The notes under the pieces: generated by a model
Told to the model about the DNA's origin: nothing
What the model saw: only the letters and a program-made list of their open reading frames with translations
Databases searched by the model: none
Program-made: the position numbers and the translations under genes
Source of the DNA: a virus
Taxonomy: Duplodnaviria; Heunggongvirae; Uroviricota; Caudoviricetes
IMG/VR virus record: IMGVR_UViG_2609459826_000005
Coordinates: 1 to 15,276 of that record
Length of the DNA stretch: 15,276 nt
Direction: 5' to 3' (one strand)
In this document: positions 531 to 15,276 of the stretch, piece after piece
Numbering within the stretch: the stretch's first letter is position 1
Layout: the number at the start of each line of letters is the position of its first letter

Positions 531-886
531 TGTCGGCAACCGCGAATTGGAGTTACACCGCCAAAGCCACCATCTGGCGCAAGGGCGCAGGCGGCAGGGA
601 TGAGAACGGCGACCCCATAAACGGCTATGACGCGCCGGTAGTCATCATGGTCGATTATGAGGGCGGGCTGTCAAAGCGCATCGGCAACCTGGGCACTGAA
701 ATCGTAGTGAAAAATACCGTCTGGACGGAATACGCGCTGGCCGACGCCGGTGATTACCTGCTGATTGGTGAATCTACCGATGCCGATCCGGTTGCTGCTG
801 GCGCTGACGAGGTGCGGCAGGTTATCCGCTACGCCGATACGTTCGAGCGAGTGGCGGATGATTTCGCCATCCTGACGGGAGTGTAG
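530..886 (+). CDS. head-tail joining / head closure protein
   Basis: 118 aa ORF in the canonical position between connector and HK97 gp10-like gene; start coupled to upstream stop. Assignment by synteny and size. Confidence 0.5.
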   Translation: MSATANWSYTAKATIWRKGAGGRDENGDPINGYDAPVVIMVDYEGGLSKRIGNLGTEIVVKNTVWTEYALADAGDYLLIGESTDADPVAAGADEVRQVIRYADTFERVADDFAILTGV

Positions 887-888
887 CT

Positions 889-1257
889 ATGGGCATCAAA
901 GTTAAGGGCATCAGTCAGGCGCGTAAAAACCTCAATGCCCTAGTCGGCGACATCCAGGGCCGTAAGACCATCAGGGCCATGCAGTCGGCGCTGATTATCG
1001 GGGGCTCGCAGGCTGCGCTCTATACGCCGATCGACACGTCCACGCTGCTGAATAGTCAGTTTCGCGACATAACCGTGAACGGCAATCGCGTAACGGGCCG
1101 TGTGGGATACTCTGCTAATTACGCGGTGTATGTTCACGACCCGAACGTACCTCAGACCTTCCGACGAGCTACAGCACGGAAAGAATTCCTCACGAAAGGC
1201 TTTGAGGATACGCGAAGACAAATCGATGCGGTGATCGCCAAGGAGATGTCGCTATGA
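889..1257 (+). CDS. HK97 gp10-like tail completion (neck) protein
   Basis: 122 aa, GGGAG 8 nt upstream of ATG 889; size and position typical of the HK97 gp10 family; stop overlaps next start (ATGA at 1254-1257). Confidence 0.55.
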   Translation: MGIKVKGISQARKNLNALVGDIQGRKTIRAMQSALIIGGSQAALYTPIDTSTLLNSQFRDITVNGNRVTGRVGYSANYAVYVHDPNVPQTFRRATARKEFLTKGFEDTRRQIDAVIAKEMSL

Positions 1258-1637
1258 CGCCCATGATGCATGAGCGGGTGCGCAACATGTTCGGTGATGC
1301 TGGCCTCACGGCCGGGTTCACGGTGCAGAAGTTGATGTATGACGACCCGGAGGATCTGACGCAGGCCGTGATGGTGTTCAGGCCAAACGGTGGTACCGAC
1401 GTACGAAACGATCTTGGTTCTGAGCATTACGTCCTGGTCGATGTCATTGCTGCGAAGGACAGGCGCGGCGACGCCGCTAATGCTGTTCAGCGTATTGTCG
1501 ATTATGTTCAGGCAAACCCTATGGCTGATGAGTGCGTCGGCTATATCCAGAATATGGGCGCAATCCCCGCCCCGGTGTTAACAGAAGAGGGGCGAATGAC
1601 CTTCCGGCTCCAGTTCGCCTGCACCTACGGCGAATAG
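1254..1637 (+). CDS. tail terminator / tail tube-head joining protein (gpU analogue)
   Basis: 127 aa ORF directly upstream of the major tail protein gene, translationally coupled to the preceding gene; followed by an intrinsic terminator. Confidence 0.5.
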   Translation: MTPMMHERVRNMFGDAGLTAGFTVQKLMYDDPEDLTQAVMVFRPNGGTDVRNDLGSEHYVLVDVIAAKDRRGDAANAVQRIVDYVQANPMADECVGYIQNMGAIPAPVLTEEGRMTFRLQFACTYGE

Positions 1638-1653
1638 CCAACCCAACCAAATA

Positions 1654-1680
1654 GACCCGCTACGGCGGGGTTTTTTTTTT
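1654..1680 (+). terminator. rho-independent terminator (CCCGC-TACG-GCGGG stem-loop + T10)
   Basis: Perfect 5 bp GC stem 1656-1660/1665-1669 with tetraloop, followed by ten T at 1671-1680, 17 nt after the stop at 1637. Confidence 0.7.
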
Positions 1681-1700
1681 AGTCAAAGAGGAAGTTTCAC

Positions 1701-2444
1701 ATGGCTAATTGCCCTAGCTCTAACGAGCGCCTATTCGGTGGCGCGGTGGTGCTGGAAGTCGCCGACGGCTGCCCGGATGTCAAACCACTTGAATCAGAGT
1801 GGAAGGCGCTGGCGGCCGGTACGTCCAAAGGCTTCGACTTCAACCCGAACTCGGTAACCTCAGATGCTGATGACGGCGGCGGCTATGTCGAAACCATCAT
1901 CACCAACAGTGACTTCACCCTGAGCTTTGAAGGTGAGGTCCGCAAGAAGGATAAACTGGATCAGTACGGCGTCGGCAAGTTCATCAAGTATTTCGCTGAC
2001 GAGCTGAAAGCCAAACGCCAGCCCGGAATCTGGGTGCGAATGGACTACGGCCCGGTTGAATTCATCGGCTACATGAACATCAACGCGCTGAGTTCTGACG
2101 GCGGCACCAACGATATCGTCACGTTCTCTACCGAGTTCAAAGTGGGCGATGCCAGCACCATCGAAGTTAACGAAGTGACGGCAGTGGCGGTGACCGGCGT
2201 AACGGTGACCCCAGCTACCAGCACTGGCGCGGCAGGCGGTACCAGCACCTTTACGGTGAATATCGCCCCGACCGGCGCAACCAACAAAGACTTCACCGTA
2301 GCATCAACCGATCCAACCAAAGCCACTGCTACCGCCTCCGGTACCACCGTGACGGTGAACCGCGTCGCCGCCGGCAGCGCGCAGATCGTCATTAACACCG
2401 AAGACGGTAATTTTGTTGCAACCCATACCGTTACCGTCAGCTAA
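1701..2444 (+). CDS. major tail protein with C-terminal Ig-like (Big_2-type) domain
   Basis: 247 aa; AAAGAGGAAG RBS at 1685-1694. The C-terminal ~90 aa is Thr/Val/Ala-rich with alternating beta-strand pattern (VTGVTVTPATSTGAAGGTSTFTVNIAPTGATNKDFTVASTDPTKATATASGTTVTVNRVAAGSAQIVINT), typical of Ig-like domains appended to siphovirus major tail proteins (cf. lambda gpV C-terminus). Confidence 0.8.
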   Translation: MANCPSSNERLFGGAVVLEVADGCPDVKPLESEWKALAAGTSKGFDFNPNSVTSDADDGGGYVETIITNSDFTLSFEGEVRKKDKLDQYGVGKFIKYFADELKAKRQPGIWVRMDYGPVEFIGYMNINALSSDGGTNDIVTFSTEFKVGDASTIEVNEVTAVAVTGVTVTPATSTGAAGGTSTFTVNIAPTGATNKDFTVASTDPTKATATASGTTVTVNRVAAGSAQIVINTEDGNFVATHTVTVS

Positions 2445-2504
2445 CGGCCATTCCAAAGGGTGGCCGCGGCTGCCCTTGATAATGACCGTTAACCTGGGTG
2501 AAAC

Positions 2505-3179
2505 ATGACAGTAGTAGCCATGAAAGAAATTGGCGAGATCGCCATTAGTGACAGCCGGGAAGGTGGTAAGGACTACTTACTGCGGCCTTCCTTCTCAGCG
2601 ATGATGAAGGTTGGTGAACCGGATGAGATCGTGAAGATGTACGCACTAATTCACGGTAGCGAGGTGCAGCAATTGATAGCCTCTTGTACTGCTGGCTTCG
2701 ACTCAATTCCTGAATGGATGGCTCCATCCTTCAATGTTGCAGCTGACAATCTGCTATTCACGTCAATGCTGGTATTGCAGGCCTGCTGTGATGATGATCT
2801 CGATGAGATAATTGGCGAGTGGGCTGATGAAGGCGGCAGAATCTCCTATCAGCCCGGCATGATGGCAAAAGATTTAATCATCATTTTCGCCCGCGAGCTG
2901 ATGCAGCACGGCATCGTAGGTAAAGCCAGTGTGCGACGCCTGCAGCGGCATGAGTCAGGCGAAACGACGAACGAGTTTAAGGCCTTCGACTACATCAGCG
3001 CGGCGCGTAGCCACTTCGGCATGAGCCGGGAAGAGGCTGCGGCGCTGACCATGACCGAGTTTCAGCTGATGCTGGCGCAGAAATACCCTGATCAGAAGGG
3101 TTTCACGCGGGATGAGTACGACGCGGTTGCGGATGACTTCCTGGCGAAACAGGCTGCGAGAAGGGCTAAGCAGAAGTAG
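2505..3179 (+). CDS. putative tail assembly chaperone (position-based)
   Basis: 224 aa acidic protein in the slot between major tail and tape measure genes, where gpG/GT-type chaperones are encoded. No slippery frameshift site recognised; the call is synteny-based only. Confidence 0.4.
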   Translation: MTVVAMKEIGEIAISDSREGGKDYLLRPSFSAMMKVGEPDEIVKMYALIHGSEVQQLIASCTAGFDSIPEWMAPSFNVAADNLLFTSMLVLQACCDDDLDEIIGEWADEGGRISYQPGMMAKDLIIIFARELMQHGIVGKASVRRLQRHESGETTNEFKAFDYISAARSHFGMSREEAAALTMTEFQLMLAQKYPDQKGFTRDEYDAVADDFLAKQAARRAKQK

Positions 3180-3195
3180 CCCACCCAAATAATCA

Positions 3196-3223
3196 AGCCT
3201 CGGCATTGTCCGGGGCTTTTTTG
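3196..3223 (+). terminator. rho-independent terminator after the chaperone gene
   Basis: AGCCTCGG / CCGGGGCT 8 bp stem (one G-U wobble) with CATTGT loop followed by TTTTTTGT, 17 nt after stop at 3179. Confidence 0.6.
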
Positions 3224-3261
3224 TACCCGCAGTAAATCAACCGCGCTTCACACGCGCATTG

Positions 3262-3267
3262 TATAAT
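3262..3267 (+). promoter_or_regulatory. consensus -10 hexamer TATAAT upstream of the KilA-N gene (candidate moron promoter)
   Basis: Exact TATAAT at 3262-3267 immediately preceded by TG, located between a terminator and the KilA-N start. No good -35 found at 17 bp spacing. Confidence 0.35.
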
Positions 3268-3341
3268 CCTAGAGCCTACAGTAAGCGAGCCTGAGAGTTG
3301 CCGTTATAGGTGGCGACCTCTCTAGGAGGCGGCTTCTCTGT

Positions 3342-3905
3342 GTGACAGGCTCTGCTTTCTATAGGCAAATCGCAATGAAATATCCAACCGTATCAGTAAG
3401 CGGCGTTTCCGTTCGCGTTGATGACGAAGGGCGCTATAACCTTAATGATCTTCATGCAGCCGCAGTGGCAAACGGAGAGGCAACAGAACAGCAGCGCCCA
3501 AGTCAGTTTTTGCGTAGTGCTCAAGTTAAGCGCTTCATAAAAGCACTAAAAGCCAAAGTGCAAAAAAGCACTCTGGAACAAATTCAACCACTTAATGTTA
3601 TTAAAGGTGGGGATGAACCAGGCGTTTGGGGTGTTGAACTGTTGGCGATCCGTTATGCCGCATGGATTAAGCCGGAATTTGAGATTGAAGTATATGAGGT
3701 GTTCCGAACGGTGGTTCGCCTCGGCATTAGTGCCATGTCTCGCCTGAACAAAATCGACCACATCATCAACACCGAATCGAAAGAGATCAGCAAGTGCGCC
3801 AGCCAGATGGCCCGGTGGGGTGTCGGTGGTCGTAAGCAGCTATTGCACGCAGCAAGAGATCGCGTCGCCGATGAAGTTCAGATGTACCTGCCAGGCATCG
3901 CGTGA
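3342..3905 (+). CDS. KilA-N domain protein
   Basis: GTG start 3342 with AGGAGG at 3325-3330 (alternative ATG at 3375). N-terminal region contains the hallmark KilA-N pattern (VSVRVDDEGRYNLNDLHAAA...RPSQFLR...IKGG...GVWGVELLAIRYAAWIKPEFEIEV). Confidence 0.8.
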   Translation: MTGSAFYRQIAMKYPTVSVSGVSVRVDDEGRYNLNDLHAAAVANGEATEQQRPSQFLRSAQVKRFIKALKAKVQKSTLEQIQPLNVIKGGDEPGVWGVELLAIRYAAWIKPEFEIEVYEVFRTVVRLGISAMSRLNKIDHIINTESKEISKCASQMARWGVGGRKQLLHAARDRVADEVQMYLPGIA

Positions 3906-3912
3906 AGGTGGC

Positions 3913-3935
3913 AAGGCCCACTCAGGTGGGCTTTA
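3913..3935 (+). terminator. hairpin terminator after KilA-N gene (weak T tract)
   Basis: AGGCCCAC-TCAG-GTGGGCTT hairpin (GCCCAC/GTGGGC perfect stem) followed by TTTAG; 8 nt after stop at 3905. Confidence 0.45.
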
Positions 3936-3960
3936 GATCTCTTATCTCGGGGAGAGGGCG

Positions 3961-4155
3961 GTGAAACCTAAGCAAACATTAACCATTAACAATTTGATAC
4001 CATTCCCAAGCGAAGCGCCTAGAGAAGAGACCATAGAGTGTAATGATGTTTTTCTTGATAATTCAATGCTAGAGGAAAAAATTTCTACTCGAATAGGTTT
4101 TAGTAGATTGATTTTTGTTAATGAAATCAACTCGATCAATTCCATCTCGGAGTGA
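3961..4155 (+). CDS. small hypothetical protein (64 aa) in AT-rich moron segment
   Basis: GTG start with GGGGAGAGGG just upstream; ends 37 nt before the peptidase gene. A 73 aa ORF on the opposite strand (3942-4163) covers the same DNA, so strand and reality are uncertain. Confidence 0.3.
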   Translation: MKPKQTLTINNLIPFPSEAPREETIECNDVFLDNSMLEEKISTRIGFSRLIFVNEINSINSISE

Positions 4156-4192
4156 ATTATCATATGCGCATACCTTTCAATAGGATGCGAAA

Positions 4193-4771
4193 ATGATTAA
4201 CGAATATGATTTCGTGACAGCGGCAGGTCATATAGCTAAACATGAAGCCGGTCACTGGCTTGCGGCGTTTAAATTAGGCTGGAACCCAAGAGGTATAGGC
4301 TTGAGAGTGCCGCCTCATGCTAAAGATCACATGGGTTATTCAGAAACAAGTCACAAAGTCGATTTAAGCAGCATTGAGGATGTCCGGGATTACGCAAGAG
4401 GCAGGGTAAAAATTCTCTACAGTGGCGTATATGCAGAGCACTTTGACGGAAAAGACTTTGATCACGAATCCATAATGCGTGATATGAAGCGTGGCGGCGG
4501 TGCTTATTCTGATTTCTGGAAAGCTGAAGAAATCTACTTCTTTTACTACAACTGCCTCGACACAAAGGGAGAGTGGGATGAAGAGTTTCAGCCTGTTATT
4601 TGCGACGTTCAGCTCATGATCGAAATGCATTATGACTTCATCACCTTGGTAGCCAAATTTGTTATGGCGAGGGCAAATTTTGTCGGTCAACGCATAGAGA
4701 TTTCATCCACCGACCTGATCAGGCTGTTCGAAAATAGCGCCATTAATCTACCGGATCACGACCCTGCCTAA
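4193..4771 (+). CDS. standalone FtsH-like (peptidase M41-type) zinc metallopeptidase domain protein
   Basis: 192 aa; HEAGH at residues 17-21 (AGHIAKHEAGHWLAAFKLGWNPRGIGLRV), followed by a PRG motif and LYSG...AE / GGGAYSD segments. This parallels the FtsH protease domain (HEAGHA...IIPRGRALG...LYGGRLAEE...GASND) as recalled from E. coli FtsH. No AAA+ ATPase or transmembrane part. AGGA 7 nt upstream of ATG. Confidence 0.65.
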   Translation: MINEYDFVTAAGHIAKHEAGHWLAAFKLGWNPRGIGLRVPPHAKDHMGYSETSHKVDLSSIEDVRDYARGRVKILYSGVYAEHFDGKDFDHESIMRDMKRGGGAYSDFWKAEEIYFFYYNCLDTKGEWDEEFQPVICDVQLMIEMHYDFITLVAKFVMARANFVGQRIEISSTDLIRLFENSAINLPDHDPA

Positions 4772-4883
4772 CTGCGGGTTTTTCCGGCGCTAGCCTCTTG
4801 AGATCAATAAATCAGCGTTTGCCGTTGCGCCTGTGCTATTCCTGGGTAGGATGTTTCCACTTTTACCAATGGGGAATAGGGAT

Positions 4884-5270
4884 ATGAAGCGTTTACTGAT
4901 CATGGCTATTGCTGGGCTATCACTAACCGGCTGCGGCAAACCTGCACCGACAAGAGATGAGGCCTTTCAAATGGCTAAGCAGGAAATGTCGATGGCTCTT
5001 TGTGGCGATAGGAGTGCAAGCTGTTTTATTGCTGAAGGAGGAAGCTCTAAAGTATCAGAGAAGAAAAATGACAATACCTATAACGCCTCAGCTACATTTA
5101 ACAGCCTAAAAGGGAAGGGCAAGGATTTGGAATATAGCGGCGGGGGCGTTTTTTTCGAAATAGATGACGAAACAAGGGCTGTATATGTCAAATCCATCTC
5201 AGCATGGTCTGAGGATGGAAAAAAGAGCATTGAGCTTTGTGGTTCGAACTATAAATTCTGTACTAAATGA
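4884..5270 (+). CDS. small lipoprotein (128 aa), candidate superinfection-exclusion moron
   Basis: Likely start ATG 4884 (in-frame upstream GTG/ATG at 4833/4851/4869 lack a signal peptide). N-terminus MKRLLIMAIAGLSLTGC has a basic n-region, hydrophobic core and lipobox L-T-G-C. Followed by a strong terminator. Confidence 0.7.
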   Translation: MKRLLIMAIAGLSLTGCGKPAPTRDEAFQMAKQEMSMALCGDRSASCFIAEGGSSKVSEKKNDNTYNASATFNSLKGKGKDLEYSGGGVFFEIDDETRAVYVKSISAWSEDGKKSIELCGSNYKFCTK

Positions 5271-5286
5271 AGCCCTAATAAACAGC

Positions 5287-5309
5287 AACCCGCCGAGGCG
5301 GGTTTTTTT
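5287..5309 (+). terminator. rho-independent terminator (CCCGC-CGAG-GCGGG + T7) abutting the tape measure gene
   Basis: 5 bp GC stem 5289-5293/5298-5302, tetraloop, seven T at 5303-5309. Confidence 0.7.
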
Positions 5310-5324
5310 ATGCCCGGAGAGAAC

Positions 5325-7727
5325 ATGGCCAGCGAGGAGCAGGTAGGTAATATTGTCTATCAGGTGCAGATGGATGTTGCCAATCTTATTGAGGCGCAGC
5401 GTAAAGTAAACGAACGCCTTGAGAAGATGAATAGTGGAGTATCAAAAGCTGCCAGCAAGTTTGATGAGCTTCAGACCAGTATAAGCAGAGTAGCTGGCGC
5501 GATCGCTGCTTCAATTGTCGTTGAATGGGGGAAGGCATTTCTTGTAGCCGCTGACAATATGAGCCAACTTAACGCTCGAATTGAAAGGCTAACTGGTAGT
5601 GCTTCTGTCGCATCTCAGACCATGCAAAGTCTGATGAATATAAGCTCAACAACAGGAGGATCTCTCCAGGATACAGCCAAGCTGTGGGAAACGTTAAGCA
5701 CTGCGTTGCGGAGCACTGGTGCCACTAATGGCCAAATATTGCAGCTTACCGATACCCTTCAAAAAATTGGTCGAATTGGAGGCACATCTGCCGAGGAAAT
5801 GGCTAATGCGCTGCGCCAATTCGGACAGTCTATTTCATCCGGCGTTGTTAGAGCAGAAGAATTTAACTCTATTCTTGAGCAAATGCCTGAGTTGGCAAGG
5901 CAGATGGCGGCAGGGCTTGGAATTGGTATTGGTGAATTGCGTCAGTTGATGCTGGATGGGAAACTTTCTGCTCAAGATGCACTCAATGCAATTCAGAAGC
6001 AAACCAGCATCGTGAATGCAGAGTTCGCAAAATTGCCCCGCACCTTATCTCAGGCCAATGCTGCTCTTACCAATTCGTTTCTGTCAATGGTTGACTCAAT
6101 TAACCAGACTACAGGCGCGAGCAGAACCATGGTGGCTGTAATTGACTCCATCACCACAGCCATAGACAGGCTGACTGGGAAAACAGCTTCAGCAGCAGCT
6201 CAAATTTCCGATCTCAATAGCACAGCAGAGATGTTCGAGCGAAGGGCGAGGACATGGTCTTGGCTGGGCCTGGATGGTTGGGAGGCTCAAAGCAAGGCGC
6301 TTGCAGGGCTAAGCAACAAAGCTGCAGCTCTCGTTGGGGATATTTCTGCCGTGACCCAAGCCTCTCAAGAGGCCTCTAACACAAAGCCAATAAACATTAA
6401 AACGACCGGAGACGATGCGGCTACATCGAAGCTGATAAAAAACTCAGAGCGCCGCTTAGCGCTCGCCAAGCTGGAAGGTGAAGCCAGAGCCAGACTGCAG
6501 GCCCAATATGATGCAGCAGACGCTGGCATCACCGATCAGAAACGCATCAAAGCTCTTCAGGATGAATACGCAGAAACCTATCGGGTTACTGAGGCGCGGA
6601 AAGAGAGCAACAAAGAGGGCAAGACCTCCGCCTCGCAGGCTGAATCCATTGCTCAGAAACTGGCGAGCCTCAAACAGCAATCCGAACTCGCTGCAGATTC
6701 GACCAGTGAGTTGAGTCGAGAGCAGGCCATGCTAAGGGCCGAGCAATCCCTCGGCAGCGCCGCCACCCAGTCCCAGATTAAAGAGGCAAGGGAATACGCA
6801 GCCAGGACGTGGGACGTTGCTAATGCCCTGAAAATGCGTCAGCAGGCGGAGCAGGCCTCCCGGTTTATAAATCAGGAAGTGTCAGCTGCGAAGGTTCAAC
6901 GCGATCCTTACACAGGTGAAGCGCAGGACCCAGCCGCGCAGGTCAACGAGGAAGAGCAGCGTAAACTCGAGGCCCTGGCTAAATACCAGGAACTGGGCGT
7001 AATCAACGCGCAGCAGTTCGAAGACGGAAAGACGGCCATCGCAAGGCAGGCATCGAACGATCGCATCAGTATTGCCCAGCAGGAGGCTAAGCGTCAGGTT
7101 GACGTGATGAACATGCTGCTTGGCGGGATCGGTGATGGTTTCTCAGGCCTGGCTGAAATCGTGTCTAAAAGCGCTGGCGAAAGCAATGCCGCTTACAAGA
7201 CACTGTTCGCTATCAGTAAAGCCTTTGCGGTTGCTCAGTCCACTCTGAACCTTCAGCTTGCACTCTCAAACGCCATGGCCTCGGGTCCATTCCCCTGGAA
7301 CATGGCAGCAATGGCGCAGGTTGCTGCAGCTGGCGGCCAGGTGATCTCATCTATCGGCGCAATGTCATATGGTGGCGGGCGCGAACACGGCGGCCCGGTA
7401 TCTGCCAGCTCCATGTACCGTGTGGGCGAGGGCGGTAAACCTGAGATTTTCAAAGCCAGCAATGGCAGCCAGTACATGATCCCCGGCGATAACGGTCGCG
7501 TCATCAGTAACCGGGATATTGGCGGGGGTGGCGGGGCGTTCAATTACAGCCCGGTCATTCAGGTCAACGGTGATCCGACAGAGCAGACGCTTGCCATGCT
7601 TGAAGCGGCGGTTAAGCGCGGTGCGCAGCAAGGCTATGCCATGGCCGTCAGCGATGTCGCCAGCGGCAAAGGTAAGCTTTCCAACGCGCTGACCAACAAC
7701 TTCAACACCAGTCAACGCCTCACATAA
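5325..7727 (+). CDS. tail tape measure protein
   Basis: Long ORF (800 aa from ATG 5325; in-frame ATG also at 5310 but it abuts the terminator T-run, whereas CCCGGAG at 5313-5319 is a well-spaced RBS for 5325). Ala/Gln/Glu-rich coiled-coil-like middle, Gly-rich C-terminus, and position between chaperone and minor tail genes. Confidence 0.9.
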   Translation: MASEEQVGNIVYQVQMDVANLIEAQRKVNERLEKMNSGVSKAASKFDELQTSISRVAGAIAASIVVEWGKAFLVAADNMSQLNARIERLTGSASVASQTMQSLMNISSTTGGSLQDTAKLWETLSTALRSTGATNGQILQLTDTLQKIGRIGGTSAEEMANALRQFGQSISSGVVRAEEFNSILEQMPELARQMAAGLGIGIGELRQLMLDGKLSAQDALNAIQKQTSIVNAEFAKLPRTLSQANAALTNSFLSMVDSINQTTGASRTMVAVIDSITTAIDRLTGKTASAAAQISDLNSTAEMFERRARTWSWLGLDGWEAQSKALAGLSNKAAALVGDISAVTQASQEASNTKPINIKTTGDDAATSKLIKNSERRLALAKLEGEARARLQAQYDAADAGITDQKRIKALQDEYAETYRVTEARKESNKEGKTSASQAESIAQKLASLKQQSELAADSTSELSREQAMLRAEQSLGSAATQSQIKEAREYAARTWDVANALKMRQQAEQASRFINQEVSAAKVQRDPYTGEAQDPAAQVNEEEQRKLEALAKYQELGVINAQQFEDGKTAIARQASNDRISIAQQEAKRQVDVMNMLLGGIGDGFSGLAEIVSKSAGESNAAYKTLFAISKAFAVAQSTLNLQLALSNAMASGPFPWNMAAMAQVAAAGGQVISSIGAMSYGGGREHGGPVSASSMYRVGEGGKPEIFKASNGSQYMIPGDNGRVISNRDIGGGGGAFNYSPVIQVNGDPTEQTLAMLEAAVKRGAQQGYAMAVSDVASGKGKLSNALTNNFNTSQRLT

Positions 7728-7736
7728 GGAGTTCCC

Positions 7737-8207
7737 ATGGGGATCAGCAGCACCATTGATTTCCCGCACCAGTACCTACCAATGCCCCAGCGTTCCGGGC
7801 ATGGATTCACTCCCGTAAGCCCCCTCCAGCGTTCCATCATGACATCCGGCCGCACGCGCCAGCGTCGCAAATACACCTCGGTTCCGACTGAGGCGGGGGT
7901 TTCGTGGGTGTTTAATGATGCACAGGCGCAGCTGTTTGAGGTGTGGTTCAGGGATGTGATCACTGATGGCGCAGCGTGGTTCAACATGCGCATGCGCACG
8001 CCAATGGGCGTTGGTGACTACGTCTGCCGGTTCAAGGATATCTACGACGGGCCGGTGCTGTTCGGGTTAGGGTTCTGGAAATTCACGGCAACTCTGGAAC
8101 TGTGGGAACGTCCTATTCTGCCGCCTGGCTGGGGTAATTTCCCTGAGTTCATCGTGGGGCAGAGCATTATCGATTACGCGCTCAACAAGGAGTGGCCTGA
8201 AGCATGA
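7737..8207 (+). CDS. minor tail protein (distal tail/tip assembly)
   Basis: 156 aa; AAGGAG at 7725-7730; first gene after tape measure; stop overlaps next start. Confidence 0.6.
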   Translation: MGISSTIDFPHQYLPMPQRSGHGFTPVSPLQRSIMTSGRTRQRRKYTSVPTEAGVSWVFNDAQAQLFEVWFRDVITDGAAWFNMRMRTPMGVGDYVCRFKDIYDGPVLFGLGFWKFTATLELWERPILPPGWGNFPEFIVGQSIIDYALNKEWPEA

Positions 8208-8692
8208 CCAGTCCAACCCTGAACAGGCTTTACGCCAGCGGCGGCAGCGAGGCGCTACTGAATACGTTGCAGATTACCGTCGGTGGGCAGGATTACTGGC
8301 TGGTCGAGAACTTCGAAGATATCACCGCTGTTACAGAGGCGGGGGCGACAGTGACATTCCAGGCAGCTGCAATGGCCGTCGCGCTGCCAGCCAGGAACAA
8401 AGACGGTACGCAGGATCTGCAGTTCGCCATCAGCAACATTGACGGCATCGTTTCCACTGCGATACGCAACGCCCTGGCTAACCTGAACAACGGCGCGCTG
8501 GTAATGCGGCAGTACATATCGACCGACCTTAGCTACCCGGCGGCACCACCTATCGTTCTGCAGATTAAGGACGGGTACTGGAAGGCCACAGAGGTGCAAA
8601 TTACTGCCGGATTCCTGAATATCCTGAAAACCGCGTGGCCGCGATACCGATACACGCTTCCTGTGTTCCCGGGACTCCGCTACCTACAGTAG
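8204..8692 (+). CDS. minor tail protein
   Basis: 162 aa; ATG overlaps upstream stop (ATGA); AAGGAG 9 nt upstream; syntenic with lambda L-position genes though not recognisably lambda L. Confidence 0.6.
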   Translation: MTSPTLNRLYASGGSEALLNTLQITVGGQDYWLVENFEDITAVTEAGATVTFQAAAMAVALPARNKDGTQDLQFAISNIDGIVSTAIRNALANLNNGALVMRQYISTDLSYPAAPPIVLQIKDGYWKATEVQITAGFLNILKTAWPRYRYTLPVFPGLRYLQ

Positions 8693-8701
8693 GAAATCAC
8701 C

Positions 8702-9082
8702 ATGTTCAATCCAGATAAATACCGTTCTGTCGAGTGGCAGAAGGGCGGGCGCGCTTACCCCGCGCTTGACTGCTTTGGCATCGTCAACGAAATCAGGCGC
8801 GATCTGGGTCTGGATCCGTGGCCGGATTTCGCCGGAGTCACGAAGGATGATAACGGCCTAGATCGGGAAGCGCGCGGGCTGATTGCTGGCCTGACTCGAT
8901 GTGAACCGACCCCGGGCGCAGGTATCGCCTGTTATTCCGGCTCTGTTGTTACACACGTTGCCATCGTTGTCGAGATTGACGGCCAACTGCGCGCTGCGGA
9001 GTGCAATCCCCGCACTAACGTAACCTTTCTGCCGCTGGCGCGGTTTGCGCGCCGCTTTGTTCGCGTGGAGTATTACCAGTGA
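8702..9082 (+). CDS. NlpC/P60-family tail protein (gpK-like)
   Basis: 126 aa with putative catalytic Cys in ALDCFGIV and downstream His in VVTHVAIVVE, the Cys-His arrangement of NlpC/P60 peptidases; position equivalent to lambda K. Confidence 0.65.
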   Translation: MFNPDKYRSVEWQKGGRAYPALDCFGIVNEIRRDLGLDPWPDFAGVTKDDNGLDREARGLIAGLTRCEPTPGAGIACYSGSVVTHVAIVVEIDGQLRAAECNPRTNVTFLPLARFARRFVRVEYYQ

Positions 9083-12000
9083 CGATCCGTATCTATCCCT
9101 CCCGGTTGCCGGGCGAACCGTTGGAAACGCATCAACATGAAACGATGACCCTTAGCGCCTGGTTTGCGCAGAACGTGAAGGACTGGACGCCGGATCAGCA
9201 GCATCCGGTTGCGGTTGAAATCGACGGTGTCCCCGTCCCGCCGGCAGAGTGGACACTGCGCGTTATCAAGCGAGAAACAGACGTCAGGTTGTATCCGGTG
9301 CCATACGGTACCGGCGCAGAAATCGCTATCTGGGTTGCCGTCAGCGTAGCTGTCGCCTCTGCTGCGTACAGCATCTACATGATGAGTACAATGTCACAGG
9401 CGGGTGGCGGCGGTGCCCAGGCGGCCAGCGGAGACCAGATTGACCTCAACCCGGCCAAAGCGAACGCTGCGAAACTTGGTGATCCCATCCGGGAAATCTT
9501 CGGCAAATATCGGGTCTGGCCTGATTACGTTGTGCAGCCGGTAAGCCGGTTCGTCAACGAGACCAGCATGGAAACCAGCATGTTCCTGTGCGTGGGCGTC
9601 GGTGACATGGTGATTAACCAGTCCGATATCCGGATTGGCAATACGCCGATCTCCGCTTTCGGTACCGACGTGCGTTACACCATCTACCCACCTGGCACTA
9701 ATGTATCCGGCGACACGCGTACCGAAAACTGGTTCAACTCACCAGAGGTCGGGAATACCGGTTCCGGTACCGCCGGGCTGGACCTTGGCTCAAGCGGTCC
9801 GGAGACGGTCAGTATTATCGCTGACGCTCTGGTAGTGTCCGGAAACTCCATCACGCTCGTTGACGTATCGGCGTCAGGCGGCGATGAGGAGATCCCGCCG
9901 TCGTGGACTGTAGGAACGGTGATCACCGTGCTGGCGCCAAACTCTTATACGGTGGTGTCATCCGGCGGTTACAGCGTCATTTATGGCGGGATAGAGGAAC
10001 TTGCACCTTATGTCGGCATGCCGGTGACGCTGAACTATAACGGCAACGACTACGACCTGGTGATCGCCAGCTATGCCCCGGGCGTTCCGGCGGTACCCGG
10101 GGTTGGCGGCAGTGCCGCGACCTTAACCGCCAGCGCCGCGCCGACGACTTATGATTTCAGTACCGCACCTGTGACGTTCAGCATCAGCTGGCAGGGTACG
10201 ACCTACCCGGTCTCGCTGGTTACCAATTACGTCACCATGTCGGGTCTGGTTTCCTCGATCACCTCGCAGCTCTCAGGCTCCGGTCTGATTGCCAGAGATA
10301 ACAGTGGGCGTCTCGAAATCGGTGAGGCCAGCAGCCCGTTCGCTGGCGGTTCCATAACCAACAGCCCTTTACCCGCTGCTGTGTTCGGCGATGCGCCAGT
10401 CAATAAGGCGGGCGTGAAATCAACGGGCGGCACGGCGGAAGTCAGGGCGCACATTACCCTGGCTTACAACAGCGCCACCGGCACGCCGTTTACCGGGTTA
10501 CCGGAAGGCATTCAGCGGTTCTCGCTGGGGTTGGCTGGCAATCAGTTCCGGATCACCGATGTGGACAGCCAGACGGTCACGATTGAGCGGTTAACTGTGA
10601 CAACAGGCTCTGGCGGTGAAACCATCACGACGCCGGATCCATCGTGGCCTGGCTTCACTGAGCGCATGCTGCTGGATGCGACTGTAACGGGTGTCAGTGA
10701 CGATTATGAGTGGGTCGGCCCGTTCCTGGCCTGCCCGGACGGGGAAACGCTGGACGCATTCGAGGTGAACATCAACTTCCAGAGCGGCCTGGTGCGTTAT
10801 ACCGACCAGGGGAATAAACGCTCCATGCCGGTACGCCTGGTGATCCAGTATCGCAAGGTCGGCACCACCGCCTGGCAGCAGCAGTCTCCGTTCTATTCAC
10901 GCAGCACTGAAAACCAGATCGGGTTTACGCATCGCTACAGTGTGTCGCCGGGCCAATATGAGATCCGGATGCGCCGCACTGAACCGGTTAAGGGGGGCAG
11001 TACCCGCGACCAGGTATTCTGGCAGGCGCTGCGCTCACGACTCAGCAAGCGCCCCACGAAGTACAATGGTGTCACCACCATGGCGCTGACCGTGCGCACA
11101 GGGAATCGCCTGGCGGCCATGTCCGATCGCCGGATAAGCGTCACGCCAACCCGGATTTACAGTGGCGGCAGAACGGCGCGGAGCATTAGCGGGGCGCTTT
11201 ACCACGTCCTAGGGTCGCTGGGGTTCACGGCCAGTCAGATAGATACGGCGGCAATTGACGCGCTGGAACAAACCTACTGGACGCCACGCGGTGAGAAGTT
11301 CGACTGGGCGAGCGGGGAGAGCAAGTCAGCGCTTGAGGTATTGCAGAAAATCACCAACGCAGGGATGGGGTATTTTCTGCTGTCTGATGGGCTGGCGTCT
11401 GCCGGCAGGGAAGGCATTAAACCCTGGGTAGGCATGATCACCCCTCAGGAAACCACCGAGGAGCTGCAGACCGCGTTTAAAGCCCCGTCACAGGACGATT
11501 ACGACGGTGTGGACGTGACGTATATCAACGGCACCACCTGGGCAGAGGAGACCGTGCAGTGTCGCCTGCCTGGCAATCCTACGCCGTTGAAAATCGAGAG
11601 CTATACGCTGGATGGTGTTCTGGATGAGGACCGGGCCTACCGCATCGGCATGCGCCGGTTGCTGGGCTACCAGCTGCAGCGCCTGCAGCACACCACCTAC
11701 ACCGAGATGGATGCGCTCTGCTATGAGTTCATGGATCGCATAGTGCTGGCCGATGACATCCCGGGCAGCCAGACTCTTAGTTGCCTGATTACCGATATGA
11801 CGTATGACAGCAGCAAAATTACCATGACGCTAAGTGAGCCGCCGGACTGGTCGTTCCAGAACCCGCGCGTGATTATCCGCCATCAGGATGGCAGGGCATC
11901 AGCCATGGTGGTGCCGACACGCATTGACGACTTCACCATCTCGGTGCCGTACAGCGCCGCGCTGGAGCCCGAACTGTGGGCAATGAACGACGCGTACATT

Positions 12001-12165
12001 GAGCCGCCGCGACTGCTGTTCTGCTCGTCTGTGCGGGTGCCGTATGACGCCCTGGTAGGCGAAATATCACCGGGAAACGACGGTATCAGTCAGGTAACAG
12101 CAATTCAGTATCACCCCGGAAAATATGCCTACGATGACGCCACTTACCCCGGCGACGTTACTTAA
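9079..12165 (+). CDS. central tail fibre / tail tip protein with gpI-like N-terminal domain and gpJ-like core
   Basis: 1028 aa; GTG start overlaps upstream stop (GTGA). N-terminal ~200 aa resembles lambda gpI organisation (short soluble domain, hydrophobic stretch IAIWVAVSVAVASAAYSIYMM, then a PAKANAAKLG...IFGKYRV segment). Further in, QYEIRMRRTEPVKGGSTRDQVFWQALRS matches the lambda J NIRMRR...TLW motif as recalled. Confidence 0.75.
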   Translation: MTIRIYPSRLPGEPLETHQHETMTLSAWFAQNVKDWTPDQQHPVAVEIDGVPVPPAEWTLRVIKRETDVRLYPVPYGTGAEIAIWVAVSVAVASAAYSIYMMSTMSQAGGGGAQAASGDQIDLNPAKANAAKLGDPIREIFGKYRVWPDYVVQPVSRFVNETSMETSMFLCVGVGDMVINQSDIRIGNTPISAFGTDVRYTIYPPGTNVSGDTRTENWFNSPEVGNTGSGTAGLDLGSSGPETVSIIADALVVSGNSITLVDVSASGGDEEIPPSWTVGTVITVLAPNSYTVVSSGGYSVIYGGIEELAPYVGMPVTLNYNGNDYDLVIASYAPGVPAVPGVGGSAATLTASAAPTTYDFSTAPVTFSISWQGTTYPVSLVTNYVTMSGLVSSITSQLSGSGLIARDNSGRLEIGEASSPFAGGSITNSPLPAAVFGDAPVNKAGVKSTGGTAEVRAHITLAYNSATGTPFTGLPEGIQRFSLGLAGNQFRITDVDSQTVTIERLTVTTGSGGETITTPDPSWPGFTERMLLDATVTGVSDDYEWVGPFLACPDGETLDAFEVNINFQSGLVRYTDQGNKRSMPVRLVIQYRKVGTTAWQQQSPFYSRSTENQIGFTHRYSVSPGQYEIRMRRTEPVKGGSTRDQVFWQALRSRLSKRPTKYNGVTTMALTVRTGNRLAAMSDRRISVTPTRIYSGGRTARSISGALYHVLGSLGFTASQIDTAAIDALEQTYWTPRGEKFDWASGESKSALEVLQKITNAGMGYFLLSDGLASAGREGIKPWVGMITPQETTEELQTAFKAPSQDDYDGVDVTYINGTTWAEETVQCRLPGNPTPLKIESYTLDGVLDEDRAYRIGMRRLLGYQLQRLQHTTYTEMDALCYEFMDRIVLADDIPGSQTLSCLITDMTYDSSKITMTLSEPPDWSFQNPRVIIRHQDGRASAMVVPTRIDDFTISVPYSAALEPELWAMNDAYIEPPRLLFCSSVRVPYDALVGEISPGNDGISQVTAIQYHPGKYAYDDATYPGDVT

Positions 12166-12184
12166 CAGCATTTAAAAATTACCT

Positions 12185-12206
12185 GACCCGCTTCGGCGGG
12201 TTTTTT
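12185..12206 (+). terminator. rho-independent terminator (CCCGC-TTCG-GCGGG + T6) abutting the fibre gene
   Basis: 5 bp GC stem 12187-12191/12196-12200, tetraloop, six T at 12201-12206. Confidence 0.7.
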
Positions 12207-12221
12207 ATGCCCGGAGCGAGC

Positions 12222-13889
12222 ATGACCACATACCGCACGAATAATCCATTTGGGTCAATGGATCCGAAAGACCTTTTCGATAACTCCCAGAATCTTGACT
12301 ATGCCCTAAACGATATAACAAAATCCTTGTGGACAGACCGCTTAGGAAGAGTAAGGAAAAGTTATTGGGGAATGGAGCAGGCTTTTTCTGCTCAACTTAT
12401 CAGCCAGCAGCAAAGATTTAATTATTTCATTCAGAATTCAGGGTATAAAGTAATTGGTGAATATACCCAAGGTCCTCTGACTGTTACTGATTATAATCAA
12501 CTGATTCGCTATCAGAGTGAATTTTATAAATTAAATTCTTCTACTTCCATTCCATTTACCACTACGGGCAATGACTCCACGTCATGGTCAAACGATTCTT
12601 CACATTTTGTCAGTGTAGGGGATGCGGCCATTCGCCAAGAATTATCTGGTGCTGGCGGCTCAGGTTTGATTGGAGATTTACTCAAGCCTATCACGTGGGA
12701 TGGGTTTTCTGGAGGAGCGGCCTGGGACGGTGTAACCAATGATAATATTCCCTACCAGGCGGCAGCTCAATATGGTCGAAAATTTTTAATGCCATATGGC
12801 GTTGGAAATATAACAGAGTATTCAGTAGGTCTTTTTGCGCCGAATTTCTCTGTTCTTGGTGAGGCAGAGCAATTAGGCTCATTGCAATATCCTGTTGATG
12901 ATTTCCGTCCATCAAGGACGGATACAAAATACTCAAAGTATCACGAAACGGATCCAGCATCTAATCGATGGGATTCCTGTTCTATACATACAATTGTTAA
13001 ATGTCCTCAGGACGGTGCTAATCCAAAAGGAAATGCGGCAGCTGTAACTGGATATGCCAGGGCTATCAATAGCGAGGGTGGTGATCATGTTGGCGTACAT
13101 GGTAGAGCAGAAGGTGATACCAGTTACGACTTCGGTACTGGGATGGGGTTGTGGGGTGGATGGCTGTCAGCCGTTTACAGACCTAATACAGGCTCAGCTG
13201 GGAAGCCAATAAAGTCTATTATTGGTTGTGAGATTGACGTGCAAAATGATGGGCCACACGCACAAAACCCCAATCCGGATGGTGTTGGTGAGCTGCGTGG
13301 TCTCGCGGTAGGGAATACTGGCACCGGCCATCTTAATCAAGGCGTTGATGTATTCGCTAACAATAGCGGTGCGCGTGGAAGGTGGTGGATGGGCGTTCAC
13401 GTACGTGCTAATTCCATTGTAGGAAGACATCTGGTATCAACAGAGGGGGAAGTTGGTAATGCAATGGTGATTGCTGGAGCGGCATCGTCAGGGACGCGTT
13501 ACGGCGGATTAAAATTTAGTAAATATCCCTACACAGCGGTAGGACAAGGAGGTCATCTTTCTTATGGAATTGATTTCAGGGAGGCAACAATTCGCTTACA
13601 AAACGCGATTGTAATGGGGCCTCAGCACCGGATTACATGGGAGCCTGACACTGCAAAGGGTGTTGCGGTAGAGACAGAGGGAGGGGATGTAATTACTTTC
13701 CGGGGATATAACATAGCCATAAATAACTCCAAAGTTTTGGGGACTAGGCAAACTGGTATTTTTAATATGTCGGGGACGGCAGATGGAACCTCATACAATA
13801 CAGAAACCGTCACACTTGTAAATCTTGCCAGATACCTCAAGAAAGTAACTGATGCATTAATATTTCATGGCCTTATTGGCCCAACTTGA
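12222..13889 (+). CDS. tail fibre / tailspike protein (putative receptor-binding protein, possible depolymerase)
   Basis: 555 aa from ATG 12222 (in-frame ATG at 12207 abuts the terminator; CCCGGAG RBS serves 12222). Last large gene of the tail cluster; visibly lower GC than neighbours; Gly/Asn/Thr-rich C-terminal half suggestive of a beta-rich binding or enzymatic domain. Confidence 0.65.
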   Translation: MTTYRTNNPFGSMDPKDLFDNSQNLDYALNDITKSLWTDRLGRVRKSYWGMEQAFSAQLISQQQRFNYFIQNSGYKVIGEYTQGPLTVTDYNQLIRYQSEFYKLNSSTSIPFTTTGNDSTSWSNDSSHFVSVGDAAIRQELSGAGGSGLIGDLLKPITWDGFSGGAAWDGVTNDNIPYQAAAQYGRKFLMPYGVGNITEYSVGLFAPNFSVLGEAEQLGSLQYPVDDFRPSRTDTKYSKYHETDPASNRWDSCSIHTIVKCPQDGANPKGNAAAVTGYARAINSEGGDHVGVHGRAEGDTSYDFGTGMGLWGGWLSAVYRPNTGSAGKPIKSIIGCEIDVQNDGPHAQNPNPDGVGELRGLAVGNTGTGHLNQGVDVFANNSGARGRWWMGVHVRANSIVGRHLVSTEGEVGNAMVIAGAASSGTRYGGLKFSKYPYTAVGQGGHLSYGIDFREATIRLQNAIVMGPQHRITWEPDTAKGVAVETEGGDVITFRGYNIAINNSKVLGTRQTGIFNMSGTADGTSYNTETVTLVNLARYLKKVTDALIFHGLIGPT

Positions 13890-13915
13890 TTTAATAAATA
13901 TTCTGAGGATAATAA

Positions 13916-14083
13916 ATGGACAGCCAAGTAGTACAAAATATCATGCAATTTATGCTGCGTGTTAATCTTTCCGGACAGGAGGTCCCGGCGTTTAATGTTG
14001 CAATGAATGCATTGCAGGAAGAGTTGATCAAAAGTGAAAAAAACCATGAAAGGGAGGTTGAATAATGGCTTTGAAAACAAATG
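13916..14083 (+). CDS. small hypothetical protein (55 aa)
   Basis: ATG 13916 with GAGGA 6 nt upstream, in an AT-rich stretch right after the fibre gene; overlaps the next ORF by 19 nt. Below the 60 aa cut-off of the supplied ORF track; found by manual translation. Confidence 0.3.
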
Positions 14084-14310
14084 ATGCCGGTTCAGGGTTA
14101 TATATACGCGTCGAGTTACCACGCGTACATGGCAAATACCGTGCGCAGTTTGACCTTGTTCAATATGTTAACCACCCTGTCACAGGAGATAAGGCGGAAG
14201 TGGGTCGTGAAACAATGGAGTGTGATTACGATCTGAATGGAGCTAATGTAATTGAGCAATGCTACTTTTACGCCAAGGCCAAGGTGCCTTTTGGAGTTTT
14301 AGATTGCTAG
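14065..14310 (+). CDS. hypothetical protein (81 aa)
   Basis: ATG 14065 preceded by strong RBS AAGGGAGG at 14048-14056; no recognisable motif. Confidence 0.45.
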   Translation: MALKTNDAGSGLYIRVELPRVHGKYRAQFDLVQYVNHPVTGDKAEVGRETMECDYDLNGANVIEQCYFYAKAKVPFGVLDC

Positions 14311-14342
14311 GCTCTCGCGCAGATCTCTCTCCGATTGCACAT

Positions 14343-14609
14343 GCCATGGCTGCAGTAGCTGTGCAGTTATTACTTGCAATTACGTCTGGAAATTGGTGTT
14401 GTGGCGGTGTGCTGGGATGTTTATGGTTCATATCCAGAGAGCACACCCAAGCTGAATATCGCTGGATTGCTCAGTTCGGCGAAGGCAAGCGCGCCAACAT
14501 GCCTTGGTGGGGCGGGTTCGACTGGCGAGTGTGGAATCTGCCCAGCCTTCTCGACTGGCTGATTCCGGTGCTGGCCTGTAGTGTCGTTTATTTTGTCTCC
14601 ACCATCTGA
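14343..14609 (+). CDS. small two-helix membrane protein (88 aa), Trp-rich loop
   Basis: Start chosen at ATG 14343 because the listed start at 14259 lies inside the preceding ORF. Hydrophobic segments AAVAVQLLLAITSGNWCCGGVLGCLWFI and LLDWLIPVLACSVVYFVSTI flank a loop containing NMPWWGGFDWRVW. Confidence 0.45.
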   Translation, partial: AMAAVAVQLLLAITSGNWCCGGVLGCLWFISREHTQAEYRWIAQFGEGKRANMPWWGGFDWRVWNLPSLLDWLIPVLACSVVYFVSTI

Positions 14610-14665
14610 CTTCTGTAATCGGCATTGATAGGCGTCGCCTCATTGATCTGCACCCCTTTCAAAAC

Positions 14666-14685
14666 TACTGTATATAAAAACAGTA
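14666..14685 (+). promoter_or_regulatory. LexA (SOS) box TACTGTATATAAAAACAGTA
   Basis: CTGT-N8-ACAG with AT-rich spacer, 17/20 match to the E. coli consensus TACTGTATATATATACAGTA; sits directly upstream of AAGGAG (14687-14692) and the GTG start at 14702. Confidence 0.7.
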
Positions 14686-14701
14686 TAAAGGAGTGCAGAT
14701 C

Positions 14702-14941
14702 GTGCCCCGCAAATCAGACATTCACAGCGCATTTGTCGCTGCAATACAGCTAAATCCTAAGGGATACCAGTGTTTACGCACGGACGACTTTATTCGAGAA
14801 CTTGCCAAGGTGCACTGGCATTTCAGTCAGGAAGATGCCAATGACTGGATAGAGCGCTACCAGGAGTTCTTCGTCGATAAGACGCCTGATAACAGCCAGA
14901 ACAGGTTGTGGATCCTGCGCAACATGGGGAGGGTGCTCTGA
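14702..14941 (+). CDS. hypothetical protein (79 aa), first gene of a putative LexA-regulated operon
   Basis: GTG 14702 lies 9 nt after AAGGAG (the listed start at 14693 has zero spacing to the RBS). Stop TGA overlaps the ATG of the next gene (TGATG). No recognised motif. Confidence 0.5.
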   Translation: MPRKSDIHSAFVAAIQLNPKGYQCLRTDDFIRELAKVHWHFSQEDANDWIERYQEFFVDKTPDNSQNRLWILRNMGRVL

Positions 14942-15276
14942 TGGGGTTTCCTTCACCGGCGGGCGACTACGTAGAGCAGCGGTTAACACCGGAGCGTATC
15001 TGCGGGATCGGCATGGACAGCCGCATCCTCGAAACATCATCCGGCTTTGCCGTTATCGAGCCGTGCACCAGGCTGGTACAGAATCAGGTTCTGCTGATTT
15101 TGTCTGGCGGCCGGACTCAGTTTGCCCGGGTAATGGGTAGGGCGCTGATTTGTGATGATGGCGAAGCGATCGAAGGTGATGCAGCTGAAGAGGCTGAGGT
15201 TATGAGGCGGGTGACGCACTTTATCAACAGCACTGATGCTGCGATATCTCTTGAGGCGGCATTGGCGCAGTTTTGA
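14941..15276 (+). CDS. UmuD-like (LexA/S24 superfamily-related) protein, divergent
   Basis: 111 aa starting MGFPSPAGDYVEQRL, matching the N-terminal arm motif of UmuD/MucA (GFPSPAADYVEQRIDL / GFPSPAQGYEKQEL as recalled). The canonical GDSM serine and the catalytic lysine context are not evident. Stop codon is the last three bases of the window. Confidence 0.5.
   Translation: MGFPSPAGDYVEQRLTPERICGIGMDSRILETSSGFAVIEPCTRLVQNQVLLILSGGRTQFARVMGRALICDDGEAIEGDAAEEAEVMRRVTHFINSTDAAISLEAALAQF

Follow-up and report, generated by a model that had tools for sequence, protein, structure and literature searches.

Positions 12185-12224 of a 15,276-nucleotide stretch of tailed-virus DNA (Caudoviricetes; IMG/VR record IMGVR_UViG_2609459826_000005, positions 1 to 15,276, hereafter the window) very probably form a compact intercistronic cassette in the tail operon of a prophage. 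In this cassette an intrinsic terminator of the type that follows the E. coli rpoC gene, ending in U-G, is joined through a CCC linker to a GGAG Shine-Dalgarno core that precedes the start codon of a tail fibre gene, ATG 12222. A first-pass annotation had proposed that this boundary holds a second copy of a terminator, ribosome-binding site (RBS) and start codon unit matching one at 5287, and direct reading of the sequence confirms it. We refer to the unit before the fibre gene as copy B and to that before the tape measure protein (TMP) gene as copy A, and we regard the two as instances of a very widespread cassette family and not as a private duplication. Their parts and the genes that they precede are as follows.

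12185..12202, + strand: terminator hairpin of copy B, with 5' arm GACCCGC (12185-12191), UUCG tetraloop (12192-12195) and 3' arm GCGGGTT (12196-12202)
12201..12209, + strand: U-tract and ATG of copy B (T6 12201-12206, ATG 12207-12209), forming the terminator's 3' flank with the conserved U-G at its end
12210..12212, + strand: CCC pyrimidine linker of copy B (YCY in the family)
12213..12216, + strand: Shine-Dalgarno core GGAG of copy B, followed by a 5-nt spacer, CGAGC (12217-12221), to the start codon
12222..13889, + strand: tail fibre/spike gene, 555 aa, supported true start ATG 12222 (MTTYRTNNPFGS...), PHROG tail fibre families (E 3e-24 and others)
5287..5304, + strand: hairpin of copy A, AACCCGC-CGAG-GCGGGTT, 16 nt past the TGA stop of ORF 4833-5270
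5303..5324, + strand: remainder of copy A (T7 5303-5309, ATG 5310-5312, CCC, GGAG 5316-5319, spacer AGAAC)
5325..7727, + strand: TMP gene, 800 aa, supported true start ATG 5325 (MASEEQVGNIVYQ...), phrog_1107, phrog_1538 and Pfam TMP_3

Two copies of one cassette in the window

Both copies share the same layout, a GC hairpin, 6-7 T, ATGCCCGGAG, a 5-nt spacer and ATG. Copy B (12185-12224) reads GACCCGC-TTCG-GCGGGTT(TTTT)-ATG-CCC-GGAG-CGAGC-ATG and copy A (5287-5327) reads AACCCGC-CGAG-GCGGGTT(TTTTT)-ATG-CCC-GGAG-AGAAC-ATG, so that, besides its first base, copy A differs in its loop (CGAG), one extra T and its spacer (AGAAC). A repeat finder picked up both parts, the hairpins as repeat D3 and a 31-nt repeat of 87% identity as D8. 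The pattern of the whole cassette (ACCCGC-N4-GCGGG-T6-N0-1-ATGCCCGGAG-NGANC-ATG) matches the window at exactly these two sites and had 0 matches in 200 dinucleotide-preserving shuffles, while a looser one, T6-N1-3-GYYYGGAG, returns the same two sites alone against 0.01 expected.

Both hairpins appear in the terminator scan, each with a 7-bp stem containing 5 G-C pairs, and they fold with -11.8 kcal/mol (copy B) and -11.6 kcal/mol (copy A), giving z-scores of -4.1 and -3.1 against shuffles. They have the attributes of intrinsic terminators, namely a 7-bp GC-rich stem (closed by a UUCG loop in copy B), a U-tract (T6-AT in B, T7-AT in A) and a co-directional position shortly past a stop codon: copy B begins 19 nt after the TAA (12163-12165) of tipJ, the tail tip gene, and copy A 16 nt after its upstream ORF. 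The Rfam 15 covariance models, searched across the whole window with E up to 1, gave nothing at 5287-5330 or 12185-12227. We also considered alternative pairings, of GGG with the downstream CCC and of the CUUCGG loop region with CCGGAG; these are far weaker than the -11.8 kcal/mol hairpin and unsupported by the folds, and we treat them as coincidental. A recent duplication within this genome was rejected, since the two copies resemble their respective counterparts in E. coli relatives more than they resemble one another and both lie near a family-wide consensus.

A cassette family shared by many phages

The pattern GGGT6-N0-2-AT-N0-1-GCCCGGAG, in which neither the hairpin nor the start codon is fully specified, has at least 120 loci in genome_contigs and at least 120 in viral_contigs, against 0 matches in viral_contigs for a composition-matched permutation (GCCC to CCGC). 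Figures on 126 viral matches and on 182 and 192 copies, here and below, are among the matches listed. Both a hairpin of at least 5 bp set against the T-run and, 3-12 nt past GGAG, the start codon of an ORF of at least 50 aa are present in 116 of the 126 viral matches. The Shine-Dalgarno spacer measures 5-8 nt in 179 of 192 members (93%), and GGG and GCCC stand 9 nt apart in 175 of 192 (91%), where the pattern allowed 8-11 nt; in the window this spacing is N9 in copy A and N8 in copy B. In 174 of 182 cases the hairpin is preceded by a co-directional ORF, whose end lies at a median distance of 20 nt, which makes the unit an intercistronic region of stereotyped form, about 55 nt long. The stem itself varies by compensatory changes (CCCGC/GCGGG, CCCACC/GGTGGG, CCTCGC/GCGGGG, CCCGGC/GCCGGG). 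In an alignment of stems 97.5% of cells are paired and 7/7 pairs are changed on both sides, values that are descriptive only because the set was selected for pairing. A scan specifying only the hairpin gives the family consensus T6-W-W-T-G-Y-C-Y-GGAG, and one-mismatch variants (GCCTGGAG, GTCTGGAG, GTCCGGAG) are common.

Genes downstream of the 192 copies fall into 37 clusters, and 77 copies precede members of the TMP cluster that holds the TMP of the window; others precede two fibre families and DNA-circulation-like, baseplate-like and lambda-M-like proteins. The hosts include Enterobacterales, Pseudomonas, Marinobacter and others. Among cultured phages, Pseudomonas phage phiPSA1 and Marinobacter phage PS3 carry the cassette before TMP, and virulent, N4-like Litunavirus phages carry it before a small HNH gene. 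In one of the latter, Pseudomonas phage vB_Pae575P-3 (L466, 700-745), the cassette (…GGGTTTTTTATTGCCTGGAGGAAACCATG) precedes a 63-aa HNH endonuclease gene, which hints that small mobile genes can carry or exploit a terminator-plus-ribosome-site unit. A looser layout was seen in another prophage (L351, 5790-5835) before a GH28 tailspike: CCCGGC-AATGC-GCTGGG, T7, ATGGAATTAAT and ATG, again with an ATG directly after the T-run.

The elements of the cassette, an intrinsic terminator and a Shine-Dalgarno-led start, are ordinary; what stands out is their wide sharing, fixed geometry and position at joints. We found no description of such a cassette in the literature searched (on mosaic boundaries and on terminators before TMP genes), which is no proof of absence, and matches in a full-text search for GCCCGGAG were all primers or unrelated sequences.

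A host-type terminator with a conserved U-G end

The first 27 nt of the 45-nt cassette consensus match every E. coli genome, at the terminator just after rpoC. This terminator, AAAAACCCGCTTCGGCGGGTTTTTTTATG (then GGGGGAG), is present in 5426/5426 genomes and is identical to the consensus at 27/27 nt, comprising the hairpin ACCCGC-TTCG-GCGGGT, the U-tract and the following ATG; copy B has one T fewer (rpoC reads T7-ATG). The contexts are different. In E. coli the terminator stands at the end of an operon, GGGGGGAG comes after it without any gene start, and the next gene is 160 nt away, whereas the phage cassette is intra-operonic and joined to a Shine-Dalgarno core and start codon through its TG-YCY linker. 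The rpoC terminator works in vitro (PMC9239205), and a termination efficiency of 63% has been measured for it in Pseudomonas putida (PMC10602866). Given this match to a terminator that works in vitro and in vivo, we read the hairpin, T-run and ATG of the cassette together as a host-type (rpoC-type) intrinsic terminator.

In the viral collection, a scan for nothing but the hairpin and T6, with the linker left unspecified, gave 107 non-redundant new sites; T occupies the third position after the T6 in 88% of them and G the fourth in 70%, and pyrimidines come next. The loci retrieved hold 235 other terminator-like hairpins, and TG occurs 9-10 nt past the stem in 36% of these, compared with 1-7% at most other offsets; the value is 34% in those without a ribosome site nearby. 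The triplet at 12207 is accordingly read as the conserved end of the U-tract and not as a start codon. It fits the G-10...Y-1 G+1 pause consensus, which we take to be relevant as a hypothesis only.

Support for fibre and TMP starts at the downstream ATG

ATG 12207 is in frame with ATG 12222, 15 nt apart and with no stop between, and the mechanical ORF list gives the fibre gene as 12207..13889. Were this ATG and its counterpart at 5310 the real starts, the fibre and TMP would have 5-residue N-terminal extensions, MPGAS and MPGEN. The first-pass annotation had argued otherwise, from a terminator set directly against the fibre start and a well-spaced RBS kept for ATG 12222. The RBS is indeed there, GGAG (12213-16) standing 5 nt from ATG 12222 and so within a 4-9 nt range, while ATG 12207 has no Shine-Dalgarno sequence before it, its preceding 22 nt being hairpin and U-tract.

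We compared 30 fibre homologues that had been gathered by protein similarity only, so that the sample is unbiased as to the cassette. The cassette with its terminator is found in 30/30, and so are the downstream ATG and an MT(T/K)Y N-terminus. The upstream ATG is less constant: it is altered in 2/30 (ACG in L357, ATT in L378) and frameshifted by a 5-nt insertion in 2/30 (L365, L380). In L084, which came from the pattern scan, a 6-nt spacer puts the upstream ATG out of frame while the downstream ATG and MT(T/K)Y are kept. Over the 15 nt of 12207-12221 the homologues show identities of 1.00/0.98/0.96 at "codon" positions 1/2/3, and over codons 2-21 past 12222 these become 0.97/0.96/0.78. Since the third position relaxes only after 12222, coding-type variation begins there. 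Of four strong PHROG fibre profiles, three have their first position matched to residue 6 of the long ORF, that is, to the downstream Met, and position 1 of the TMP profile phrog_3519 is likewise aligned to the downstream Met.

The wider family points the same way. Of the 192 cassettes, 111 have ATG as upstream triplet, 77 (40%) have TTG and 4 have neither, and the upstream ATG is out of frame in 49/111. In TMP homologues that share the N-terminus, the spacer measures 5, 6, 7 or 8 nt, and some have ATTG in place of ATG; in the TMPs of the MSEKAGEI group the upstream ATG is out of frame; and a 17-locus TMP subgroup has the same N-terminus without cassette, terminator or upstream ATG. In E. coli relatives, PGAP places the start at the downstream ATG for the fibre in all four checked (L001, L002, L351, L352) and for TMP in L002 and L352. 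In favour of the upstream ATG we can cite the single PGAP call that uses it, for TMP in L001, two changes of L359 in the 15-nt stretch that would be synonymous if translated, and its being in frame in 62/111 ATG-bearing cassettes (56%) where chance gives 33%. Sequence relatedness could explain this excess, though some low-level use of the upstream ATG is conceivable. Translation of these genes principally from ATG 12207 and ATG 5310 is nonetheless very improbable in our judgement. Homologues, codon-position pattern, profiles and PGAP starts together support ATG 12222 as start of the fibre gene and ATG 5325 as that of TMP, and the earlier start-codon proposal thus stands for both genes, as does the placing of the terminator against the fibre start. 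Start codons would thereby be fixed for two major tail genes that are made five codons too long by automatic ORF calling and in at least one PGAP record, and a simple rule follows: an ATG or TTG directly after the T-run of a terminator belongs to the terminator.

The cassette lies at mosaic joints

We compared 79 TMP loci and found four unrelated upstream sequences joined to each of the two TMP 5' clusters. Homology breaks at or inside the hairpin, and the T-run, ATGCCCGGAG and gene are still shared. As regards the fibre, a different prophage, in E. coli CUPF06, has the cassette and fibre behind an acyltransferase gene, with homology to the window from base 12180 on. The cassette thus either travels with the downstream gene or serves as a crossover site. 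One stereotyped cassette of about 45 nt is thus found at tail-module joints in very many phages, and it provides a concrete sequence with which to ask whether conserved linkers, through homologous exchange, give rise to mosaic joints.

The fibre gene has another variable point. Between the fibre of the window (12222-13889) and those of L001, L002, L351 and L352 only the first ~150 residues are shared, and the C-terminal parts are swapped, which places a second mosaic joint inside the gene. In the relatives, the annotations of these parts are SGNH/GDSL hydrolase, tail fibre or tail spike domains; a GH28-type spike is present in addition in one related prophage.

Proposed function of the cassette and competing explanations

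We propose that RNA polymerase lacking an antitermination modification would stop or be attenuated at the cassette, for instance when read-through or accessory-gene ("moron") transcription reaches it in a lysogen, and that in lytic growth a polymerase modified by a Q-type antiterminator would read through. In the read-through RNA, the hairpin would insulate the ribosome site from upstream structure, and the U/C-rich single strand with GGAG would allow translation to start independently of upstream context. Such a self-contained unit could travel with genes and mark module joints, and its being self-contained would explain why many phages of Gammaproteobacteria have near-identical copies ahead of their TMP, fibre and baseplate genes. 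It would also make the cassette a compact natural part, an insulated terminator plus ribosome site.

Several observations weigh against this proposal. Termination and read-through are both deduced from sequence, and the Q-like gene was seen in a relative only, the window excluding the regulatory region. The minimum free energy fold of 101 nt around copy B favours longer-range pairing over the local hairpin. Between tipJ and the fibre gene there is no obvious upstream accessory gene to insulate, and the role of the cassette is less clear here than at the TMP site. Finally, a terminator plus Shine-Dalgarno core by itself leaves the conservation of the G-Y-C-Y linker and the strict N9 spacing unaccounted for. 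Regarding this last point, we tentatively suggest, with more doubt than conviction, that hairpin-U6-WW-UG-YCY-GGAG-N5-8-AUG is a distinct, horizontally spreading "junction cassette" of the tailed phages of Gammaproteobacteria, whose GGG-N9-G spacing and pyrimidine linker encode something further. Candidates for this extra role are a pause site for the polymerase (G-10...U-1 G+1), built in to tune termination, a platform for ribosomal protein S1 or another factor that sets the translation of low-copy tail proteins, and a preferred crossover site that drives tail-module exchange.

In one explanation, compatible with the one we prefer, the cassette is conserved mainly as a recombination linker: a shared stretch of ~20-45 bp would let phage or host recombinases swap tail modules, and expression would be secondary. 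The homology breaks at the cassette, with four unrelated upstream contexts for each of two TMP clusters, agree with it, as do the transplantation of fibre and cassette behind an acyltransferase gene, the near-identical sequence in phages of Enterobacterales, Pseudomonas and Marinobacter, and the Bet/Exo/Gam proteins encoded by the E. coli relative. However, compensatory changes in the hairpin often reduce the uninterrupted identity to only ~20 nt (GGGT7ATGCCCGGAG), selection acting on random recombinants also predicts joints at gene boundaries, and the main swap point of the fibre is inside the gene, after ~150 aa. Strict spacing and covariation point instead to selection on RNA and polymerase function, and we consider the linker explanation possible but rather unlikely. 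Less probable, in our view, is that the cassette acts chiefly in RNA processing or stability, the read-through mRNA being cut in U6AUG (by an RNase E type activity) so that the hairpin protects the upstream 3' end, the ribosome site is freed, and tail tube, TMP and fibre reach different levels. Tail proteins are needed in different copy numbers, a stable intercistronic hairpin is followed here by a single-stranded U/A-rich segment, and five such hairpins punctuate the operon at gene-block boundaries. But the cassette element matches a genuine transcription terminator exactly, and processing does not account for the G at a fixed 9-10 nt or for the YCY linker.

A promoter in the T-run/TTGC region that drives TMP and fibre, for example of the sigma-54 type (-24/-12, GG-N10-GC), seems to us barely credible. 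The sigma-54 consensus is TGGCAC-N5-TTGCW, with GG and GC at -24 and -12, and GG and GC are so spaced in the common N9 form of the cassette, where many copies also contain TTGC. Yet GG is the only match to the -24 element, the N8 spacing of copy B is one nucleotide short, the +1 would be expected at the start codon, leaving the conserved GGAG out of the mRNA, the + strand has no sigma-70-like site close by, and the same sequence ends rpoC in E. coli. The sigma-54 reading was rejected on its poor -24 match, the position of its +1 and the spacing of copy B. We also rejected a reading of GGCGG...TG as an ops-like element for RfaH, which differs in length and has no TAG core.

The tail operon around the cassettes

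The window is the tail module of a siphovirus-type prophage. Besides the genes listed above it contains:

1654..1679, + strand: a third hairpin of the same type, GACCCGC-TACG-GCGGGG (1654-1669), plus T10, before the major tail protein gene (ATG 1701)
1701-2444: major tail protein gene, ATG 1701
2505-3179: DUF6246 protein gene
3342-5270: accessory slot, with a KilA-N gene and two ORFs of unknown function
4833-5270: ORF, TGA stop 5268-5270
Between the TMP gene and the TipJ-type gene: small tail protein genes
9079..12165, + strand: TipJ-type tail tip/host-specificity protein gene (phrog_469 E 8e-242; Pfam FNIII-A_GpJ; limits from the ORF list)

Megablast of the whole window found no close cultured phage, only partial matches of 74-80% identity (CobraSix, ST101-KPC2phi6.1). 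E. coli prophages inserted beside yciB/yciC have ~87% identity to the window over much of its length. The E. coli relative at this identity is lambdoid, with int, exo/bet/gam, a repressor pair, ninB/ninE/rusA, lysis genes and terminase. A Q-like antiterminator occupies the canonical position in this relative according to PHROGs (phrog_753, E 2e-61), and a Pfam search of the gene at the Q position gave no match.

The terminator scan finds five co-directional terminator-like hairpins at gene-block boundaries, at 1656, 3195, 4763, 5287 and 12185. The one before the major tail protein gene has AGAGGA between its T10 and ATG 1701 and is thus also a terminator-plus-ribosome-site junction, without the ATGCCCGGAG segment or TG-CCC linker. 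A hairpin at 3195-3228 follows the DUF6246 gene, overlapped by the only Rfam match in the window, a sub-threshold one to isrJ (3149-3219, E 0.55), and one at 4763-4788 closes ORF 4193-4771; counting these two, the tail operon is punctuated at least five times. Their positions agree with two alternative roles, insulating accessory genes in the lysogen or stepping down the expression of low-copy tail proteins. With rpoC-like terminators punctuating the tail operon of this lambdoid-type prophage, its late transcription probably depends on antitermination.

The slot between the DUF6246 and TMP genes (3342-5270) has different accessory genes in every relative. In the window these are the KilA-N protein and two proteins with unnamed PHROG families only; in L001 (4706-5092), L002 (4803-6788) and L352 (4183-5238) they are 1, 4 and 3 other small genes. 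Positions 4055-4082, within the slot, match a sigma-70-like promoter. The slot looks like a hotspot for morons or defence genes, with the TMP cassette as its right edge. Elsewhere in the operon, a 126-aa ORF at 8702-9082 has a homologue in E. coli relatives that PGAP labels "nitrite transporter". It sits between a DUF1833 gene and tipJ and has a weak CHAP/NlpC-P60 match (E 3.5e-4); this position and match suggest a lambda-K-like tail protein, the transporter label being a propagated misannotation.

Comparison with known systems

The lambdoid late operons, in which terminators are read through by Q-modified RNA polymerase, resemble the present one in having co-directional intrinsic terminators within a late structural operon, with a Q-like protein encoded (in the relative). 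Moron terminators (Juhala et al. 2000, as cited in PMC10914365) are comparable in that the TMP-proximal copy follows an accessory-gene slot. Unlike them, the copy at 12185 follows an essential tail gene, tipJ, and not a moron, and the phage cassette is stereotyped across many unrelated phages instead of being specific to one locus. The intrinsic terminators of phage phiKZ, which were mapped experimentally, have a conserved motif of hairpin plus TTATKYYGT (PMC10914365). This is likewise a terminator family with a conserved 3' flank, TTAT-(G/T)-YY, much like the T6-AT-G-CCC of the cassette, but it belongs to one giant virulent phage, its hairpin is CCYCCCC.../GGGRRGG, and it has no tie to a downstream ribosome site.

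The elements known as SAS and ESAS in Cluster K mycobacteriophages offer a further parallel. SAS is a conserved asymmetric motif with a Shine-Dalgarno core, 3-7 nt before mostly ATG starts; its 13-bp consensus is GGGATAGGAGCCC, it occurs in 10-20 copies per genome, at non-structural genes and in one phage cluster, and the ESAS inverted repeats are 17 bp long with no U-tract (PMC3203893). Like these, the cassette is a motif before genes of different families, with an inverted repeat upstream as in ESAS and a role beyond that of ribosome site left unexplained. It is not a member of that family: it reads ATGCCCGGAG, which has only GGAG in common with GGGATAGGAGCCC, and it differs in copy number and distribution, with 2 copies in 15 kb, at tail genes (TMP and fibre), a canonical terminator and an occurrence in many phage lineages. 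If the junction cassette suggested above were real, it would be a Gram-negative counterpart of the mycobacteriophage SAS/ESAS elements.

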